Positions 3,238 to 25,077 of a DNA stretch of 33,149 nucleotides are shown here, one piece after another (position 1 is the first letter of the stretch; each line of letters begins with the position of its first letter). This DNA comes from a virus (taxonomy: Duplodnaviria > Heunggongvirae > Uroviricota > Caudoviricetes): the IMG/VR virus record IMGVR_UViG_2526164669_000028; one strand, written 5' to 3'. The notes beneath the pieces are model-generated. The model was not told the DNA's origin and did not search any database. It was given only the letters and a program-made list of their open reading frames with translations. The translations under genes were made by a program, and so were the position numbers.

Positions 3238-3509
3238 GTATTCGTATTGAAATTGGCGAACGTTATGTCGTTACCGGTGACAGCTTCCAGTTTATTCTCC
3301 ACGAGAAAAAGAGAGCGGAAAGCGGTAAAAACGCCGGTCAGGAATGGCTGGCGGTGGTTGGTTATTACCCGAAATTAAGCCAGCTCGTTTCCGGCCTGAT
3401 GCATCACGATATTCTGACCGGAAGCGCAAAGTCTTTTGCTGATTTAAACGCGCAGGTTGAGCAACTCAGCAAGCGTTGTTCAGAGGCTTTTGGCTCATAT
3501 GGCCGTTAA
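3234..3509 (+). CDS. Hypothetical early protein (P2 orf83-like)
   Basis: 91-aa ORF, ATGA overlap with upstream gene; its 3' end overlaps the A start. Confidence 0.65.
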   Translation: MSIRIEIGERYVVTGDSFQFILHEKKRAESGKNAGQEWLAVVGYYPKLSQLVSGLMHHDILTGSAKSFADLNAQVEQLSKRCSEAFGSYGR

Positions 3510-5787
3510 AGCCTCCGGGCGTTTTGTCCCTCCGTCAGCATTTGCTGCAGGCACCGGTAAGGCGTTTACCGGTGCTTATGCATGGAACGCGCCACGCGAG
3601 GCTGTCGGGCGCGAAAGACCCCTTACACGTGACGAGATGCGTCAGGTGCAAGGTGTTTTATCCACGATTAACCGCCTGCCTTACTTTTTGCGCTCGCTGT
3701 TTACGTCACGCTATGACTACATCCGGCGCAATAAAAGCCCGGTGCACGGGTTTTATTTCCTCACATCCACTTTTCAGCGTCGTTTATGGCCGCGCATTGA
3801 GCGTGTGAATCAGCGCCATGAAATGAACACCGACGCGTCGATGCTGTTTCTGGCTGAGCGTGACCACTATGCGCGCCTGCCGGGAATGAATGACAAGGAG
3901 CTGAAAAAGTTTGCCGCCCGTATCTCATCGCAGCTTTTCATGATGCATGAGGAACTCAGCGATGCCTGGGTGGATGCGCATGGCGAAAAAGAATCGCTGT
4001 TTACGGATGAGGCGCAGGCTCACCTCTATGGTCATGTTGCTGGCGCTGCACGTGCTTTCAATATTTCCCCTCTCTACTGGAAAAAATACCGTAAAGGACA
4101 GATGACCACGAGGCAGGCATATTCTGCCATTGCCCGTCTGTTTAACGATGAGTGGTGGATTAGTCAGCTTAAAGGCCAGCGTATGCGCTGGCATGAGGCG
4201 TTACTGATTGCTGTCGGGGAGGTCAATAAAGACCGTTCTCCTTATGCCAGTAAACATGCCATTCGTGATGTGCGTGCACGCCGCCAGGCAAATCTGGAAT
4301 TTCTTAAATCGTGTGATCTCGAAAACAGGGAAACAGGCGAGCGCATCGACCTTATCAGTAAGGTGATGGGCAGTATTTCTAATCCTGAAATTCGCCGGAT
4401 GGAGCTGATGAACACCATTGCCGGTATTGAGCGTTACGCCGCCGCAGAAGGTGATGTGGGGATGTTTATCACGCTGACCGCGCCGTCAAAGTATCACCCG
4501 ACACGTCAGGTTGGAAAAGGCGAAAGTAAAACCGTCCAGCTAAATCACGGCTGGAACGATGAGGCATTTAATCCAAAGGATGCGCAGCGTTATCTCTGCC
4601 GTATCTGGAGCCTGATGCGCACGGCATTCAAGGATAATGATTTACAGGTCTACGGTTTGCGAGTCGTCGAGCCACACCACGACGGAACGCCGCACTGGCA
4701 TATGATGCTTTTTTGTAATCCACGCCAGCGTAACCAGATTATCGAAATCATGCGTCGCTACGCGCTCAAAGAGGATGGCGACGAAAGAGGAGCTGCGCGA
4801 AACCGTTTTCAGGCAAAACATCTTAATCGGGGCGGTGCTGCGGGGTATATCGCGAAATACATCTCAAAAAATATCGACGGCTATGCACTGGATGGGCAGC
4901 TCGATAACGATACCGGCAGACCGCTGAAAGACACTGCAGCGGCTGTTACCGCATGGGCGTCAACGTGGCGTATCCCGCAATTTAAAACGGTTGGTCTGCC
5001 GACAATGGGGGCTTACCGTGAACTACGCAAATTGCCTCGCGGCGTCAGCATTGCTGATGAGTTTGACGAACGCGTCGAAGCTGCACGCGCCGCCGCAGAC
5101 AGTGGTGATTTTGCGTTGTATATCAGCGCGCAGGGCGGGGCAAATGTCCCACGCGATTGTCAGACTGTCAGGGTCGCCCGTAGTCCGTCGGATGAAGTTA
5201 ACGAGTACGAGGAAGAAGTCGAGAGAGTGGTCGGCATTTACGCGCCGCATCTCGGCGCGCGTCATATTCATATCACCAGAACGACGGACTGGCGCATTGT
5301 TCCGAAAGTGCCGGTCGTTGAGCCTTTGACTTTAAAAAGCGGCATCGCCGCGCCTCGGAGTCCTGTCAATAACTGTGGAAAGCTCACCGGTGGTGATACT
5401 TCGTTACCGGCTCCCACACCTTCTGAGCACGCCGCAGCAGTGCTTAATCTGGTTGATGACGGTGTTATCGGATGGAATGACCCGGAGGTCGTGAGGGCGC
5501 TCAGGGGCGCATTAAAACACGGCCTGAGAACATCAAATCGTCAGCAAAGAAACGGAAGCCCGTTAAAACCGCATGAAATAGCACCATCTGCCAGACTGAC
5601 CCGGTCTGAACGATTGCAAATCACCCGTATCCGCGTTGACCTTGCTCAGAACGGTATCAGACCGCAGCGATGGGAGCTTGAGGCGCTGGCGCGTGGGGCA
5701 ACCGTAAATTATGACGGGAAAAAATTCACGTATATGGTTACTAATGAGTGGTTCGGATTTCAAGATGAAGTGTCATTTTTCATGTAA
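3499..5787 (+). CDS. A: Replication initiation endonuclease gpA (rolling-circle nickase)
   Basis: ORF 3457..5787; start set at MAVKASGRFVPP (3499), matching the recalled P2 A N-terminus; 762 codons versus 761 aa in P2; HxH-type motif (HHDGTPHWHMM) present. Confidence 0.92.
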   Translation: MAVKASGRFVPPSAFAAGTGKAFTGAYAWNAPREAVGRERPLTRDEMRQVQGVLSTINRLPYFLRSLFTSRYDYIRRNKSPVHGFYFLTSTFQRRLWPRIERVNQRHEMNTDASMLFLAERDHYARLPGMNDKELKKFAARISSQLFMMHEELSDAWVDAHGEKESLFTDEAQAHLYGHVAGAARAFNISPLYWKKYRKGQMTTRQAYSAIARLFNDEWWISQLKGQRMRWHEALLIAVGEVNKDRSPYASKHAIRDVRARRQANLEFLKSCDLENRETGERIDLISKVMGSISNPEIRRMELMNTIAGIERYAAAEGDVGMFITLTAPSKYHPTRQVGKGESKTVQLNHGWNDEAFNPKDAQRYLCRIWSLMRTAFKDNDLQVYGLRVVEPHHDGTPHWHMMLFCNPRQRNQIIEIMRRYALKEDGDERGAARNRFQAKHLNRGGAAGYIAKYISKNIDGYALDGQLDNDTGRPLKDTAAAVTAWASTWRIPQFKTVGLPTMGAYRELRKLPRGVSIADEFDERVEAARAAADSGDFALYISAQGGANVPRDCQTVRVARSPSDEVNEYEEEVERVVGIYAPHLGARHIHITRTTDWRIVPKVPVVEPLTLKSGIAAPRSPVNNCGKLTGGDTSLPAPTPSEHAAAVLNLVDDGVIGWNDPEVVRALRGALKHGLRTSNRQQRNGSPLKPHEIAPSARLTRSERLQITRIRVDLAQNGIRPQRWELEALARGATVNYDGKKFTYMVTNEWFGFQDEVSFFM

Positions 5788-6195
5788 AACACTTTAAAAT
5801 TCAATGCAATGAAAGCATATCCATGTCTCATTGATATGCCTTTCAGTTATTATATATTTGTTTTATATGAAAAAATATCATATGCAGGGGGAGCAAATAC
5901 AACGGTTTACTTGTTATGATGCAAACATTGGTTAGTTAGTGAGATATATCGCCATCAATTGGGTATTTTTACCCGTGGAAAGTTAACGCTTTCTAACACT
6001 TACCCCGCGCAACGCCCCTGCCAGCGACAGGAGTCACAGGATCAGGAGGTATGGCGTATGGGTATTCGAACCCTTTGGGCGACCAAGGGTTCGTGGAGCA
6101 GGGGGCTAGTGCTGTTCAATCTCATCCTTATGAGGGCGAACCATAGTGTTGGAGCAGACATACCGTTTGCACACTATGGGCATAAGGAGCAAATC
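5788..6195 (+). ncRNA. Candidate structured non-coding leader (possible retron msr/msd RNA) upstream of the RT cassette
   Basis: About 400-nt AT-rich non-coding gap after A. Hairpins: GCATATC...GATATGC (5817-5840), GAACCCTT...AAGGGTTC (6067-6091), CCATAGTGT...ACACTATGG (6141-6178, 9-bp stem). Boundaries and function are not resolved by eye. Confidence 0.25.
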
Positions 6196-6351
6196 ATGAA
6201 GAATGATAAATTAACCAACGAACAGCAGGCGCAGAACAAGTCAAACCTGAAAAAGTGGGCTGGTTACGCTTGGAAATTAATCAAATGGGGTATTAGACTG
6301 TTTGATTTAGTTACTCGAGCACTGGACTACTTCGAAGGGGGTGATGAGTAA
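6196..6351 (+). CDS. Small hypothetical protein (51 aa), first ORF of the RT cassette
   Basis: ATG preceded by AAGGAG at 7 nt spacing; MKNDKLTNEQQAQNKSNLKKWAGYAWKLIKWGIRLFDLVTRALDYFEGGDE. The annotated 5959..6351 ORF is treated as a spurious 5' extension. Could instead be part of the ncRNA. Confidence 0.4.
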   Translation: MKNDKLTNEQQAQNKSNLKKWAGYAWKLIKWGIRLFDLVTRALDYFEGGDE

Positions 6352-6375: not shown

Positions 6376-6696
6376 ATGGAGTTGCCTATGTTACATAAAG
6401 CCCTTCGTTTAATAAGGCAATACCATAAAGAATCAATAGTTGAGTTATCTTCATCTTTAGGTATTCCAAAAGACAAAATAGTATCGCTTGAAAGCGGAGT
6501 TTGGTCACCGTCGATTGAAGTCTTAGAGCGTTACGCCTCCCATTTCGACATACCAGTATCCTCTTTAGTATTCTTTTCGGAATCATTAGGCACGCAAGGC
6601 CGTTTGTCTAAGCGATTGCGTTTAAATTTAGCCGGTAAAGTTCTGGATGTTCTGGAGTGGGTAAGTAATAAAAATGAAAAAACGGAAAAAGCTTAA
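6376..6696 (+). CDS. XRE-family helix-turn-helix protein associated with the retron-type RT
   Basis: 106 aa; HTH signature (...IVELSSSLGIPKDKIVSLESGVWSPSIEVLERYASHF...); overlaps the RT start by 23 nt, suggesting co-translation. The start may be the second ATG at 6388. Confidence 0.7.
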   Translation: MELPMLHKALRLIRQYHKESIVELSSSLGIPKDKIVSLESGVWSPSIEVLERYASHFDIPVSSLVFFSESLGTQGRLSKRLRLNLAGKVLDVLEWVSNKNEKTEKA

Positions 6697-7624
6697 AGTT
6701 AATACTAAAAATAAATCTTATGACATAATGGATTCGCCATTTTATAAACTCAAAAGTAAAAGAAAACTGGCGAATTTGCTTTGTGTTAGTCTTGATGATT
6801 TATACTCTTTGAGAAAAGATGAAGGAAACTATTCCGTTTTTGAGCAGCTTTCTAAAAAAGGGAAAGCACGAAAAATACAAAAGCCTTTAGAAAAACTAGA
6901 ACTTGTACATACACGAATTGCAAGTTTGTTATCGCGGATTGCTTTGCCAGAATATCTGCACTCAGGGAAGAAGAAGTGCTCTAATGTGACGAATGCTAAA
7001 GCTCATCTTAATAATGAAAAGATGATGACAACAGATATTAAAGCTTTTTTTCCATCAACTACAAGAGGGATGATATTTTCTTTTTTCTTTTCGGTGATGA
7101 AAATGTCATCTGATGTTGCTGATGTTTTGTCCCACATATGTACTTGTCATGACCGATTGCCAACAGGTAGTCGAATCAGTATGCCGTTGGCATATTTTGC
7201 AAATTCAAGAATGTTTGGTGAAATATATCAACTTTGCCAAAAGTTACGAGTTAACATGACTGTTTATGTTGATGATCTCACTTTTTCAGGTAGTAACGTA
7301 AATCGATTGTTCTGCGCTGTAATTCGTAAGATCGTTAATAAGCATGGGCATGTTATACACCCAACGAAAACAAAACTATATGCCAGAGATAAGCCTAAGT
7401 TGGTAACTGGAGTTATTGTATTAGGCAATGCATTAAAAGTTAGGAATGAGCAGCATTTTTTGATGGCTAGGGAAATAGATTATTGGAAAATAATTAAAGA
7501 CGCCGAAAATGCGAGAGAAACAATCATTGCCAAAAAGCTCTTTGGTCGTTTGCATTCAATGGGAGTGATTGAGCAACGTTACAAATCTAAGGTGCTTACT
7601 TTAAAGGCTAATACTGCAAATTAA
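6674..7624 (+). CDS. Retron-type reverse transcriptase (316 aa)
   Basis: Contains NAKAH (NAxxH), DIKAFFPST, LPTGSRISMPLA (LPQG-like), YVDD catalytic motif and VTG triplet (KLVTGVIV); the order and spacing resemble recalled retron RT Ec86. AT-rich relative to the phage backbone. Confidence 0.85.
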   Translation: MKKRKKLKVNTKNKSYDIMDSPFYKLKSKRKLANLLCVSLDDLYSLRKDEGNYSVFEQLSKKGKARKIQKPLEKLELVHTRIASLLSRIALPEYLHSGKKKCSNVTNAKAHLNNEKMMTTDIKAFFPSTTRGMIFSFFFSVMKMSSDVADVLSHICTCHDRLPTGSRISMPLAYFANSRMFGEIYQLCQKLRVNMTVYVDDLTFSGSNVNRLFCAVIRKIVNKHGHVIHPTKTKLYARDKPKLVTGVIVLGNALKVRNEQHFLMAREIDYWKIIKDAENARETIIAKKLFGRLHSMGVIEQRYKSKVLTLKANTAN

Positions 7625-7748: not shown

Positions 7749-8186
7749 CTATGAAGCTGACGTCACAAAATTAACACCAAGAGTCAACAGGTTTGTCACT
7801 GCTCCAGCAATGACACCTGGAGTCCCGTCTTTTACTGCACTGATAATTTTATCTCCCATCGTTTCATTACCGCCAAGTGCTTCGGGTTTTTTGTTGAGCA
7901 CCGCGAGTGCTTTCTCGGTCAGGCGCACATCATGAAAACCAGTCTGATGGTCTGTTCCGTACAGAATATAGCCGTTTTCGCTTAGGAAAGTGAATGTGCC
8001 ATCAACCACACTACGCAACTGATTCAGTGCTTTCATTTCTGGTGAGTTAAGTTGGTCAAAGTAGTCATCAGGTAACGCGGCGTTAAATTTTTTGTAGGTG
8101 ATGACTTGTGGTACAGGAAAGTTATCCCATAGCACCGCAAAGATTTCAGCCGTCTGCTGGTTAAATAATTCGAGGTTTTTGGACAT
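7749..8186 (-). CDS. Hypothetical protein (145 aa) with Gly/Ala-rich hydrophobic C-terminus; cargo gene convergent to the RT cassette
   Basis: Minus ORF with AAGGG RBS 7 nt upstream; C-terminal ...DGTPGVIAGAVTNLLTLGVNFVTSAS suggests a membrane-interacting tail; AT-rich. Confidence 0.6.
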   Translation of the reverse strand: MSKNLELFNQQTAEIFAVLWDNFPVPQVITYKKFNAALPDDYFDQLNSPEMKALNQLRSVVDGTFTFLSENGYILYGTDHQTGFHDVRLTEKALAVLNKKPEALGGNETMGDKIISAVKDGTPGVIAGAVTNLLTLGVNFVTSAS

Positions 8187-20573: not shown

Positions 20574-22703
20574 ATGAGCACAAAATTCAGAACCGTTATC
20601 ACCACTGCCGGTGCAGCAAAGCTGGCAGCGGCAACCGCACCGGGAGGGCGGAAGGTCAACATTACCACGATGGCCGTCGGGGATGGCGGTGGTAAATTGC
20701 CTGTCCCGGATGCCGGACAGACCGGGCTTATCCACGAAGTCTGGCGACATGCGCTGAACAAAATCAGCCAGGACAAACGAAACAGTAATTATATTATCGC
20801 AGAGCTGGTTATTCCGCCGGAGGTGGGCGGTTTCTGGATGCGTGAGCTTGGCCTGTACGATGATGCGGGAACGTTAATTGCCGTGGCGAACATGGCCGAA
20901 AGTTATAAGCCAGCTCTTGCCGAAGGCTCAGGGCGTTCGCAGACCTGCCGTATGGTCATCATCGTCAGCAGTGTGACCTCAGTGGAGCTGACCATTGACA
21001 CCACAACGGTGATGGCGACGCAGGATTACGTTGATGACAAAATTGCAGAACATGAACAGTCACGACGTCACCCGGACGCCTCGCTGACCGCAAAAGGTTT
21101 TACTCAGTTAAGCAGTGCGACCAACAGTACGTCTGAAACGCTCGCCGCAACGCCGAAAGCGGTAAAGGCCGCATATGACCTTGCTAACGGGAAATATACT
21201 GCGCAGGATGCCACTACGGCGCGAAAAGGCCTTGTTCAGCTCAGTAGTGCGACCAACAGCACGTCTGAAACGCTCGCCGCAACGCCGAAAGCGGTAAAGG
21301 CCGCATATGACCTTGCTAACGGGAAATACACTGCACAGGACGCCACCACCGCGCGAAAAGGCCTTGTTCAGCTCAGTAGCGCCACCAACAGCGATTCTGA
21401 AACGCTTGCGGCAACACCAAAGGCGGTTAAGACAGCGTATGACCTTGCTAACGGGAAATACACTGCACAGGATGCCACCACAGCGCGAAAAGGTCTTGTC
21501 CAGCTAAGTAGCGCCACCAACAGTGATTCTGAAACGCTTGCGGCCACGCCAAAGGCGGTAAAGGTCGCGTATGACCTTGCTAACGGGAAATACACTGCAC
21601 AGGATGCCACCACAGCGCGAAAAGGGCTTGTTCAGCTCAGTAGCGCCACCAACAGTGATTCGGAAACGCTGGCCGCAACACCAAAAGCGGTGAAGTCTGC
21701 CTATGACAATGCTGAAAAACGTCTTCAGAAAGATCAAAATGGCGCGGATATTCCTGATAAAAGATTATTCCTGCGCAATATTGGAGCAACAAATTCAACA
21801 ACCATGTCTTTTAGTGGTGGTACAGGATGGTTCAGGCTGGCAACTGTAACCATGCCACAGGCCAGTTCCGTGGTTTACATAAGTCTGATTGGTGGTGCCG
21901 GATATAATGTTAACTCCCCTATGCAGGCTGGTATATCTGAACTTGTTCTTCGTGCGGGAAATGGAAATCCAAAAGGTCTTACTGGTGCGTTATGGCGACG
22001 GACCTCGGTTGGATTTACTAATTTTGCATGGGTGAATACATCCGGTGATACCTATGATGTTTATGTTGAAATAGGTAATTACGCCACAGGTGTTAATATT
22101 CAGTGGGATTATACCAGTAACGCCAGCGTAACGATTCATACATCACCAACTTATACAGCGAATAAACCAACAGGCCTGACAGATGGAACTGTATATGTAA
22201 TTTACAGTTCGCACATTAAACCGACTGCTGCTGATGTTGGGGCGTTATCATTATCTGGAGGTCAATTGAATGGTGCACTGGGCATCGGTACATCCAGTGC
22301 TCTTGGCGGTAACTCGATTGTTTTGGGTGATAATGACACGGGCTTTAAACAAAATGGCGACGGTAATCTGGATGTTTATGCTAATAACGTCCATGTTATG
22401 CGCTTTGTCTCCGGTAGCATTCAAAGTAATAAAACCATAAATATTACGGGGCGTGTTAATCCCACAGATTACGGTAACTTTGATTCCCGCTATGTCCGGG
22501 ATATCCGGCTTGGTGGTGCTGCCACATACAAACCTGCGAACAATGGCATGACATGGACACATCAGGCACCGTCCGGGTGTGTATATTCTGGCATTATTGT
22601 TCAGGATACCGGCTCAAACTCTGCCGATAACATTGGTGGCGTATATTACAGACCGGTTCAGAAATACATTAACGGGACATGGTATAACGTGGCACAGGTA
22701 TAA
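20574..22703 (+). CDS. H: Tail fibre protein gpH with expanded internal repeats and a divergent C-terminal domain
   Basis: 709 aa; conserved N-terminus (MSTKFRTVITTAGAAKLAAATAPGG...), then five tandem 44-aa repeats, then a lower-GC C-terminal domain. Confidence 0.9.
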   Translation: MSTKFRTVITTAGAAKLAAATAPGGRKVNITTMAVGDGGGKLPVPDAGQTGLIHEVWRHALNKISQDKRNSNYIIAELVIPPEVGGFWMRELGLYDDAGTLIAVANMAESYKPALAEGSGRSQTCRMVIIVSSVTSVELTIDTTTVMATQDYVDDKIAEHEQSRRHPDASLTAKGFTQLSSATNSTSETLAATPKAVKAAYDLANGKYTAQDATTARKGLVQLSSATNSTSETLAATPKAVKAAYDLANGKYTAQDATTARKGLVQLSSATNSDSETLAATPKAVKTAYDLANGKYTAQDATTARKGLVQLSSATNSDSETLAATPKAVKVAYDLANGKYTAQDATTARKGLVQLSSATNSDSETLAATPKAVKSAYDNAEKRLQKDQNGADIPDKRLFLRNIGATNSTTMSFSGGTGWFRLATVTMPQASSVVYISLIGGAGYNVNSPMQAGISELVLRAGNGNPKGLTGALWRRTSVGFTNFAWVNTSGDTYDVYVEIGNYATGVNIQWDYTSNASVTIHTSPTYTANKPTGLTDGTVYVIYSSHIKPTAADVGALSLSGGQLNGALGIGTSSALGGNSIVLGDNDTGFKQNGDGNLDVYANNVHVMRFVSGSIQSNKTINITGRVNPTDYGNFDSRYVRDIRLGGAATYKPANNGMTWTHQAPSGCVYSGIIVQDTGSNSADNIGGVYYRPVQKYINGTWYNVAQV
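21093..21708 (+). repeat. Five tandem copies of a 132-bp (44-codon) in-frame repeat within H
   Basis: Unit KG(F/L)(T/V)QLSSATNS(T/D)SETLAATPKAVK(A/T/V/S)AYDLANGKYTAQDATTAR begins at 21093, 21225, 21357, 21489 and 21621; the last copy is partial. Confidence 0.85.
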
Positions 22704-22706
22704 TTT

Positions 22707-23234
22707 ATGCAGCATTTGATAAATATAACAGCGGGTAATCCAAAAACGGTTGAACAATATCAATTGACAAAGGGTTTTGATGTTGTCTGGTTTTTTTCAG
22801 AAGATGGTAAGAACTGGTACGAAGAACAAAAGTATTTTGCTGATGACACGATAAAAATAGCGTACGACAAAGATAATATTATCCGCTATGTGGAAAAGGA
22901 TGTGACAGCTATCAGACCAGATGGATTAAGTGTGGTTGAAGTGCCGGATATTACTGCTAACCGACGGGCGGACATTTCAGGGAACTGGATGTTTAAGGAC
23001 GGTACAGTGATTAAACGAATTTATACGGCAGAGGAATTGCAGCAGCAGGCAGAAAATCGGAAAGCCAGACTTCTTGCTGATGCTGAATCCGTGATTTTGC
23101 CGCTGGAACGCGCGGTCAGGCTGAACATGGCAACAGATGAGGAACGCACACGGCTGGAGGCTTGGGAACGCTACAGCGTTCTGGTCAGTCGTGTGGATCC
23201 TGCAAATCCTGAATGGCCGGAAATGCCGCAATAA
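22707..23234 (+). CDS. G: Tail fibre assembly chaperone gpG
   Basis: 175 aa immediately downstream of H; lower GC, like the H C-terminus. Confidence 0.85.
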
Positions 23235-23454: not shown

Positions 23455-23733
23455 TTACTTGTTCCACTCAGTCAGAATTTGGTTACTAACTTCATCTGAG
23501 AGATTGTACCAATAAGCTGAGTTATTGGTTGCGTCTACAACAATAAGCTTATCATCACTATCCATGACCGCCCTCACAATTTTGGCTGCATCCTCGGCAG
23601 AGTAACTACAGTTAACATACCAGTTCGATTCAGTTGTTAAAGCCCAATTTCCTAAAGATTTAATTGCATCATACACAGCCGCATAATCTTTCGTTTTAAT
23701 GAGGTCGTAAGTAATAAATAAATTATTAGCCAT
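23455..23733 (-). CDS. Hypothetical protein (92 aa), cargo gene in the G-FI hotspot
   Basis: Minus ORF with GGAGA RBS 7 nt upstream; AT-rich; no recognisable motif. Confidence 0.55.
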   Translation of the reverse strand: MANNLFITYDLIKTKDYAAVYDAIKSLGNWALTTESNWYVNCSYSAEDAAKIVRAVMDSDDKLIVVDATNNSAYWYNLSDEVSNQILTEWNK

Positions 23734-23761
23734 AAATCATCTCCCAAAGGACAAAGAAAAA

Positions 23762-23779
23762 AGCGCCTAGAAAGGCGCT
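23762..23779 (-). terminator. Hairpin plus T-run between the two minus-strand cargo genes (possible attenuator or terminator)
   Basis: AGCGCCT agaa AGGCGCT, 7-bp stem; on the minus strand it is followed by TTTTTTCTTTGTCC and then the RBS of the 92-aa gene. Confidence 0.4.
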
Positions 23780-23785
23780 CATATA

Positions 23786-23965
23786 TTAATGGTCTTTAAG
23801 CCATGCCTGTACTTTCTTAGCCGAATGACCTACAGCCTGTACGGCTTGAACAAGTTTGGCCTCGCTAACTCCAAACTTTTCAGCCCAATCACGTCTCTCG
23901 TAATCCTGTTTGATACTTATTAAATCATTGTCAGGTGTACCGATTTTGGTCTTATCATCAGCCAT
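23786..23965 (-). CDS. Small protein (60 aa), possibly DUF3606-like
   Basis: Internal start MADDKTKIGTPDNDLISIKQDYERRDWAEKFGVSEAKLVQAVQAVGHSAKKVQAWLKDH with GAGGA RBS 9 nt upstream; the motif (...Y.RDWA.KFGVS...L..AV..VG.SA.KV...L) resembles my recollection of DUF3606; not verified. Confidence 0.5.
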   Translation of the reverse strand: MADDKTKIGTPDNDLISIKQDYERRDWAEKFGVSEAKLVQAVQAVGHSAKKVQAWLKDH

Positions 23966-24456
23966 TTTACTGATTCCTCGTGATACAGGCTTATACCTGC
24001 CCATTAGTTATATGGCTCCCGTGCTGCTTCGTAAACGTTCAATAATCAAACAATTGACACTGATCATAAAACCAGTTAGAGGATTTGACTCTAGCTTGGA
24101 TATATGATGATGCCACCCCTTTTATATTGTTGTCGGTAACTCACAGACATTGAACTCATGCTGGTGAGTGAAAGGCTACATAAACGTCCAACATTTAAAC
24201 TGCCATCAGCAGCGTTCGCGGAGCAATATACAGGCTTCGTATTCAATCCTTGCCCTACGAGAAACCCTAGCCGTTGCCTCGTTTTCAAGTGTCAGGAAGT
24301 TCTTTGTCAGACCTCATACAGTCTTGGGTTGGGTGAGGTGCATGGGGGAAGTTGAAGCCTTAACTGTTGAGGTAAATCGAACCATAAGTGTGCAATTTTT
24401 CAAGCCCGGCGCTATTTTAGTATTGAAAACAATTCGTACGCCCCCAAGGACAACTC

Positions 24457-25077
24457 ATGATCGAATTTATCGCAGAGCATATAAACACAGTAAGTACACT
24501 TATCTCCGCTTTGGCAGCATTGCTAACAGCAGTTGCTACATTTTTCTTGTGGAGAGTAACAAGGCTATTAGCAGACGAGACAAAAAGGATGGTTGACGCA
24601 TCAGTTCAACCTCATGTCGTTGTGACTCTTGAACCAAATTCTTGGGCTGCTTTTTATTTTGATATCAATATTGCTAATACCGGAAATGCCCCAGCCTATG
24701 ATATTGAAGTCGGATTTAATCCCCCACTGGTTAATGCAGAACATAGAAAAAATAAAGGTATACCATTTAGCAAGGTTAGCGTATTGAAAAACGGCCATTC
24801 CCTCAACAGCAGTCTTTGTAAGTATGACCAGATTAAAGATCAAGTTTATTCTGTTAGTATTAGCTGGTCTAAACAGCCGGGCTCAACTGAAAGAGAGCGG
24901 AATGAGTATTCTTATGATATGGCTTCTTTCGAGGGGGTTAGCTACTTAGGTGCAAGGAGTCCAATGACACAGATAGCTGAGCAGATGAAAAAGATTAGAG
25001 AAGACTGGAGGCCGATTTCCCAGGGAAGCAAAAAAATTAAAACAGACAACTATAATTCAAGTGGCAGAGCAGAGTAA
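24457..25077 (+). CDS. Hypothetical membrane-anchored protein (206 aa), cargo gene in the G-FI hotspot
   Basis: AAGGA RBS 8 nt upstream; N-terminal hydrophobic helix (TVSTLISALAALLTAVATFFLW); AT-rich; no recognisable catalytic motif. Confidence 0.6.
   Translation: MIEFIAEHINTVSTLISALAALLTAVATFFLWRVTRLLADETKRMVDASVQPHVVVTLEPNSWAAFYFDINIANTGNAPAYDIEVGFNPPLVNAEHRKNKGIPFSKVSVLKNGHSLNSSLCKYDQIKDQVYSVSISWSKQPGSTERERNEYSYDMASFEGVSYLGARSPMTQIAEQMKKIREDWRPISQGSKKIKTDNYNSSGRAE

Follow-up and report, generated by a model that had tools for sequence, protein, structure and literature searches.

Known tail fibre proteins with the PF03406 unit

The family PF03406 (Phage_fiber_2, 'phage tail fibre repeat') is a conserved module of prophage tail fibres, and in 2012 little was known on the structure or function of this type of domain (PMC3368898). 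Here we describe an array of five such units in the tail fibre gene H of a P2-like Escherichia coli prophage, IMG/VR virus record IMGVR_UViG_2526164669_000028 (33,149 nt; this whole stretch of DNA is called the window, and all positions refer to it). Taking the lines of evidence together, we suggest, with a probability of roughly 0.8, that the five-unit array is the proximal shaft of a P2-type fibre and that it is changed in whole units by recombination or slippage.

For the P2-type (Peduovirus) gpH class, the characteristic role is to form six trimeric fibres on the virion, which bind the lipopolysaccharide core. The gpH of P2 itself (AF063097, 669 aa) resembles the window in its PF12571 N-terminus (first ~860 nt 94% identical), in the V-W-J-I-H-G gene order, in the sequence of the PF03406 unit and in the C-terminal tip motif (...QKYINGTWYNVAQV). 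However, it has only one full unit and a second that is cut after ...PKAVK, against five units in the window; the original prediction likewise gave about two for P2. Its distal 418 aa are also a different module, with a Gp34_trimer-like segment.

The S protein (gp49) of phage Mu (PDB 5yvq, 9ki1, 8ju3) contains one PF03406 unit followed by the same linker as in the window, with residues 105-175 aligning to H 338-408 and a homologous C-terminal tip at residues 423-503. Unlike H, it carries just one unit, its N-terminal attachment domain is different, and its distal part is switched by G-segment inversion, not by recombination between prophages. The Mu S chains were the only ones containing the unit in a sequence search of the PDB; only the N-terminus was built in the Mu cryo-electron microscopy paper, and an earlier crystal structure covers the C-terminus. 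PF03406 is also found in lambda Stf and in collagen-like fibre proteins of enterohaemorrhagic Escherichia coli prophages. In these collagen-like proteins a Pf2-type repeat lies between two collagen domains, whereas the window has five units head to tail, all of them matching the family model.

Two database proteins, P0155 (846 aa, 12 units) and P0156 (778 aa, 11 units), have nearly the same peptide unit (…QLSSATNSTSE(V/T)LAATPKAVKAAYDLANGKYTAQDATT…), but their N-terminus is not of the P2 collar type and they carry about twice the maximum number of copies of P2-type H. In their arrays, units of 44 aa and units of 56 aa follow each other in alternation, the longer form having an insertion, ...AAGKAPSSHTHPWNQITGVPTASLTA..., which generates a higher-order repeat.

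In Enterococcus phage EfV12-phi1, variable numbers of in-frame tail-fibre tandem duplications evolved repeatedly during coevolution (PMC6365445). As in the window, they are in frame, variable in number and upstream of the binding domain. The copy number in EfV12-phi1 was resolved with long reads (PMC6365445). On the other hand, the EfV12-phi1 unit has 1.8 kb, appeared de novo in days and is unrelated to PF03406, while the units of the window have 132 bp and are old (synonymous divergence, dS, up to ~1). This phage provides a precedent, obtained by experiment, for a possible adaptive role of tandem duplications in tail fibres.

The repeat family of the window array is known, and so is this allele of H, itself a well-studied gene. 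Several E. coli genomes have contributed the exact H protein to NCBI and UniRef, and hundreds of contigs carry other five-unit alleles of the fibre. We found no description of unit-number variation in P2 H in the literature searched, a search that probably does not reach the classic papers on the P2 tail-fibre genes.

The repeat array of gene H

Tandem Repeats Finder detected a single tandem array in the whole window (21120-21707, period 132, 4.5 copies), with 89% matches, 0 indels and a score of 875. In the frame of H the array occupies 21093-21713 and is composed of four full 132-bp units, of 44 codons each, and a truncated one:

21093-21224, + strand, repeat unit 1, KGFTQLSSATNSTSETLAATPKAVKAAYDLANGKYTAQDATTAR, with KGFTQ where the remaining units have KGLVQ
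21225-21356, + strand, repeat unit 2, KGLVQ...NSTSE...KAAYD
21357-21488, + strand, repeat unit 3, NSDSE...KTAYD
21489-21620, + strand, repeat unit 4, NSDSE...KVAYD
21621-21713, + strand, repeat unit 5, truncated, 31 aa, NSDSE...KSAYDNA; in the unit hidden Markov model (HMM), aa 350-380 correspond to profile positions 1-31

The homology of unit 5 extends for ~29-31 aa. PF03406 matches H in 5 separate stretches (328.2 bits, E 2.7e-100), above the curated gathering score of 22 bits, and the best stretch covers profile positions 1-41 of 42. The protein is a phage tail fibre also by its context, since the open reading frame (ORF) has a PF12571 domain and sits between I (PF09684) and a PF02413 chaperone. 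Tandem Repeats Finder, the reading of the frame and the five PF03406 matches together recover the head-to-tail, in-frame 44-aa repeat in five copies that had been predicted from the sequence alone, as well as the truncation of the fifth copy, homologous over only ~31 codons. The substitutions listed in that prediction are also right (T,T,D,D,D in NS(T/D)SE; A,A,T,V,S before AYD), and the spurious overlapping ORFs it mentioned are present on both strands, with internal periodicity (40, 66 and 40 aa on the + strand; 81 and 77 aa on the - strand). A Pfam TPR_20 match at aa 184-223 was discarded as spurious (23.4 bits against a cut-off of 25 bits).

The description of these copies as near-identical DNA was overstated. 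Pairwise identity between full units is 80.3-92.4% in DNA and 91-95% in protein, the divergence being mainly synonymous: 22 of the 30 columns variable among units 1-4 fall on position 3 of the H codons. Between units, dS varies from 0.29 to 1.18 and the ratio of nonsynonymous to synonymous divergence (dN/dS) from 0.02 to 0.12 (Nei-Gojobori). Because of these values, the unit duplications are taken as old rather than fresh, and the peptide of each unit is under purifying selection. Among the reading frames of the array, that of H alone carries this signature of selection. Such comparisons show that the units are translated and individually constrained parts of the fibre protein.

Neighboring units nevertheless share exact runs. 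Units 1 and 2 (90% nucleotide identity) have one of 68 nt, units 2 and 3 one of 35 nt, and units 3 and 4 (92% identity) one of 54 nt; 68 nt is also the length of the longest exact repeated k-mer on the + strand, both in gene H and in the whole window. RecA-dependent exchange in E. coli needs a minimum of ~25 nt of identity, and the runs between adjacent units are well above it.

Unit number and polymorphism in related prophages

For H of 80 IMG/VR loci, of P2 and of an E. coli chromosome, unit numbers were obtained with an HMM made from the units of the window. Relatives were included when the N-terminal domain was at least 98% identical, a level found across the 80 IMG/VR loci in spite of their differing distal regions. 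The 77 complete H ORFs counted were distributed as follows:

2 units, 14 of 77
3 units, 3 of 77
4 units, 48 of 77
5 units, 12 of 77

Within the best 120 database proteins, 57 have 4 units, 57 have 5 units and 6 have 6 units. A search of 1.84 billion representative proteins found a PF03406-type unit in 3824, and the P2-type representatives among the best 150 of these have 2-5 units. Five units are toward the upper end for P2-type H, yet they are common and not extreme. The distal tail class of the window (329 aa) occurs with 3, 4, 5 and 6 units, in proteins of 621, 665, 709 and 753 aa, respectively, and three further tail classes also vary (4/5/6, 4/5 and 4/5). This comparison across related prophages, which the original prediction proposed as a check, revealed 2-6 units on one fibre scaffold, and the natural alleles throughout that range are all open and full length.

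Gains or losses of one unit are seen directly in 7 natural allele pairs in which the whole protein is identical save for one exact 44-aa block, including differences of 6 vs 5 and 5 vs 4 units. At the DNA level, a single 132-nt block is all that separates L092 (5 units, complete chromosome CP182282) from L095 (4 units) in 5 kb, with 0 mismatches in the remainder, and the breakpoint can be anywhere in a 44-nt tract common to adjacent units. Between L097 (6 units) and L011 (5 units) there is 1 mismatch in 4 kb, with a breakpoint window of 137 nt. The four-unit alleles nearest to the window differ from its H protein by 2 residues and one block. Unit number changes in whole-unit steps between otherwise identical prophages, and the expansion and contraction that had been anticipated is directly supported by the single-block pairs, by the 132-nt event in DNA and by the occurrence of 3-6 units on one tail class.

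Nine distinct five-unit alleles could be aligned to the window without gaps (L002, L003, L006, L010, L011, L020, L034, L040 and L042). In these, 5.5% of the array sites are different from those of the window, and most of the differences are synonymous; for the N-terminal part the value is 1.5%, and for the distal part 1.7%. From 85 distinct synonymous variants of the array, 59 are the base found at the same offset in another unit of the window, where 27 would be expected (transition/transversion-stratified; binomial p = 4e-14). Repeated unequal exchange or gene conversion, either within the array or with the arrays of other prophages, would give such a pattern, and we attribute the higher polymorphism of the array to this movement of variants between units. 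The value of these results is modest and resides in the population picture, with 2-6 units per scaffold, clean single-unit events and an array whose polymorphism per site is ~3.5 times that of the remaining gene H.

Proposed explanation and its alternatives

The protein that contains the array, and the gene following it, are organized as follows:

20574-22703, + strand, gene H, P2-type tail fibre protein, 709 aa, the only long ORF there, with PF12571 and 5 PF03406 units
20574-21026, + strand, N-terminal tail-collar fibre domain, aa 1-151 (PF12571, E 1.7e-58)
21705-21770, + strand, conserved linker DNAEKRLQKDQNGADIPDKRLF, mosaic joint to the distal module, aligning to Mu S residues 143-175
21771-22703, + strand, distal region, predicted receptor-binding, with conserved tip ...RPVQKYINGTWYNVAQV; its C-terminus aligns to Mu S 423-503 and to 9cuy_c
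22707-23234, + strand, gene G, tail fibre assembly chaperone (PF02413 Caudo_TAP, E 1.4e-34)

We suggest that the array is the proximal shaft. On one side of it is the conserved N-terminal domain, the presumed attachment to the baseplate, and on the other the conserved linker to an exchangeable distal module, presumed to bind the receptor. Purifying selection keeps the peptides of the units while synonymous sites diverge, and the exact runs of 35-68 nt between neighbors would suffice for in-register homologous recombination or replication slippage. In this way, whole 132-bp units would be gained or lost in frame, the same events would shuffle variants between units, and the outcome in the population would be the alleles of 2-6 units on one fibre scaffold. 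Each unit would add a fixed increment of trimeric shaft. It is plausible that copy number alters shaft length, and it would then set the reach or flexibility of the fibre and not its receptor specificity. For engineers of P2 or R-pyocin fibres, shaft length could in that case be taken as a natural variable.

Some points weigh against this explanation. Both the step from copy number to fibre length and any effect of it on fitness are inferences. The AlphaFold2 monomer of full H, made with a shallow alignment of 25 rows, has a mean pLDDT (predicted local distance difference test) of 36.4, with values below 50 in the repeat region, and the monomer of aa 165-409 has a mean of 47.9, its all-helical model being untrustworthy for a trimeric fibre. 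The 4- and 6-unit partners of the cleanest pairs are draft assemblies, GCA_032753635.1 and GCA_027553685.1, respectively, and collapse is formally possible for those two; four-unit alleles are also found on complete chromosomes (P0006, P0008, P0023 and P0052; longest contigs of 4.8-5.2 Mb). Concerning the excess of between-unit variants, a limited set of tolerated synonymous states could explain part of it, and the signal would look alike whether the recombination took place within the array or with the arrays of other prophages.

The serious alternative is that unit number is neutral and drifting, the array mattering mainly as shared homology for the swapping of distal modules among P2-like, Mu-like and lambdoid fibres. 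We regard it as possible, at odds clearly below even. The array is common to all distal classes, and one N-terminus plus array is joined to many distal tails, with lengths of 268-473 aa and the break directly after the last unit and linker. Most distal classes share the truncated last unit and the linker DNAEKRLQKDQNGADIP, splitting 47-50 aa after the start of the last unit, and the P2 distal class splits earlier, 22-25 residues into the second unit. The same unit and linker are present in Mu S, the array DNA matches side-tail-fibre genes of lambdoid prophages at 84-87% identity, and there is no obvious compensation of copy number by the length of the distal region. Comparisons of P2, Mu, P1 and lambda fibres in the early 1990s pointed to conserved fibre motifs as recombination points for the exchange of distal modules, and the sharing of unit and linker together with the array matches would fit such a role. 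However, the purifying selection on every unit (dN/dS 0.02-0.12) shows that every copy functions as part of the protein and is not mere spacer DNA, and the narrow counts in P2-type H (mode 4, range 2-6), though other scaffolds reach 11-12 units, suggest constraint. Neutral drift is compatible with the explanation that we prefer in all but its functional step, and these data cannot separate it from a role in length tuning.

A further match to the array was observed in stfR of the Rac prophage of E. coli K-12 (L091, 2094-5456), over ~75 nt at 85% identity. The StfR protein shows no PF03406 match at E <= 1e-3, and the idea that it carries many such units is not supported; the shared DNA may be the remnant of a degenerate unit.

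It is also conceivable, although we consider it rather unlikely, that unit number is a fast-evolving, selected 'reach' setting, which would tune the length or flexibility of the fibre to the thickness of the host O-antigen or capsule. This would involve frequent in-register gain and loss of 44-residue units and conversion between them, independently of the receptor-binding tip. If true, temperate phages, as well as particles engineered from P2 or pyocins, would have in copy number a second axis of host-range adaptation.

Very improbable is that the count of five results from the collapse or expansion of the repeat during assembly. Arrays of PF03406 do break short-read assemblies in some genomes, as many NCBI contigs of 200-235 bp hold only PF03406 sequence. 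Nevertheless, the same 2130-nt gene is found with 0 mismatches in six other independent assemblies, where the downstream genes are also the same. Roughly 3,200 complete E. coli genomes give some match. At least 80% of H is covered in 65 complete E. coli genomes, and at least 80% of I-H-G in 59; among the 30 matches listed, all are ungapped 2130-bp alignments with 97-98% identity. In addition, assembler words of 69 nt or more see unique sequence in H, because its longest exact repeat has 68 nt. Assembly error is essentially excluded as the source of the five units.

The short contigs deserve a comment of their own. Entries P0121-P0154, named 'tail fiber protein, partial', lie on contigs of ~200-235 bp and contain the repeat only, which suggests that, in some genomes of E. 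coli, Salmonella and Enterobacter, short-read assembly breaks up at PF03406 arrays. A word-indexed protein search with a single 44-aa unit as query returned only 34 short fragments, of no use for copy-number statistics. Prophage typing demands caution with short-read contigs that end in the PF03406 repeat or consist of it.

Finally, we give practically no credence to a programmed variation device, whether the array is seen as a diversity-generating retroelement's variable region or as a slipped-strand phase-variation switch. Such retroelements classically target tail-fibre genes, and the same prophage has a reverse transcriptase gene (6674-7624), but its product is a retron RT_VI according to PADLOC (E 4e-105) with an adjacent HTH_VI partner gene. 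The differences between units are mostly synonymous (adenine bias was not tabulated), and the longest exact + strand repeat of the window has 68 nt, which leaves no near-identical direct template outside H (diverged or inverted copies were not searched). The array cannot act as an on/off switch either, because 132 nt are 44 codons and gain or loss never shifts the frame, all alleles of 2-6 units being open and full length.

Gene H in the prophage and the cargo slots

The window is a complete P2-like prophage, from the integrase (1-1011, - strand) through D/ogr, adjoining the host gene fieF. Its ORFs between 18148 and 23234 have the order and sizes of P2 V-W-J-I-H-G, with the baseplate genes J and I upstream of H and the Caudo_TAP chaperone directly downstream. 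Over its first ~860-1000 nt, H shares 94-96% identity with P2 and relatives (93.8% over nt 1-860 in comparison with AF063097). The assignment of the gene to P2-type tail fibre H, made in the original prediction, is confirmed by PF12571, by this synteny and by the N-terminal identity. Database protein P0053, named 'tail fiber protein [Escherichia coli]', is identical to H, and the PDB chain matched by its C-terminus (9cuy_c) was deposited as short tail fiber.

A variable cargo slot lies between the replication gene A (3457-5787) and the portal/terminase block, where the window carries a type VI retron (6376-7624, + strand). The retron consists of a 106-aa helix-turn-helix protein, PADLOC HTH_VI (E 8e-31), and an overlapping 316-aa reverse transcriptase, which is the RT_VI mentioned above (Pfam RVT_1, E 2e-7). 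No msr/msd family was matched by Rfam anywhere in the window, and the retron non-coding RNA was therefore not located. Two ORFs flank the retron, at 5959-6351 (+ strand, 130 aa) and 7749-8186 (- strand, 145 aa), and Pfam and PADLOC gave no match for either. Both may be additional cargo or effector genes; alternatively, the 130-aa ORF may coincide with the retron non-coding RNA.

A closely related prophage, also next to fieF, is present in E. coli Z1323HEC0300 (L002, NZ_CP148366.1), with a five-unit H 98.2% identical to that of the window. In the slot equivalent to that of the retron (L002 5415-7557) it has the cytolethal distending toxin genes cdtA/B/C. On one and the same phage backbone, this slot is occupied by a toxin or by a defence system.

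A second cargo slot is found between G and the sheath gene FI (23455-25077), where P2 has fun(Z). It contains a 92-aa ORF (- strand), a 59-aa DUF3606 product (- strand, ~23786-23965 by correspondence with L085) and a 206-aa ORF (+ strand); none of them has a PADLOC match, and the 92- and 206-aa ORFs have no Pfam match. In relatives, the same slot holds quite different genes, such as DUF6602 with SIR2_2 in one case and an alkene reductase/pirin/LysR block in another.

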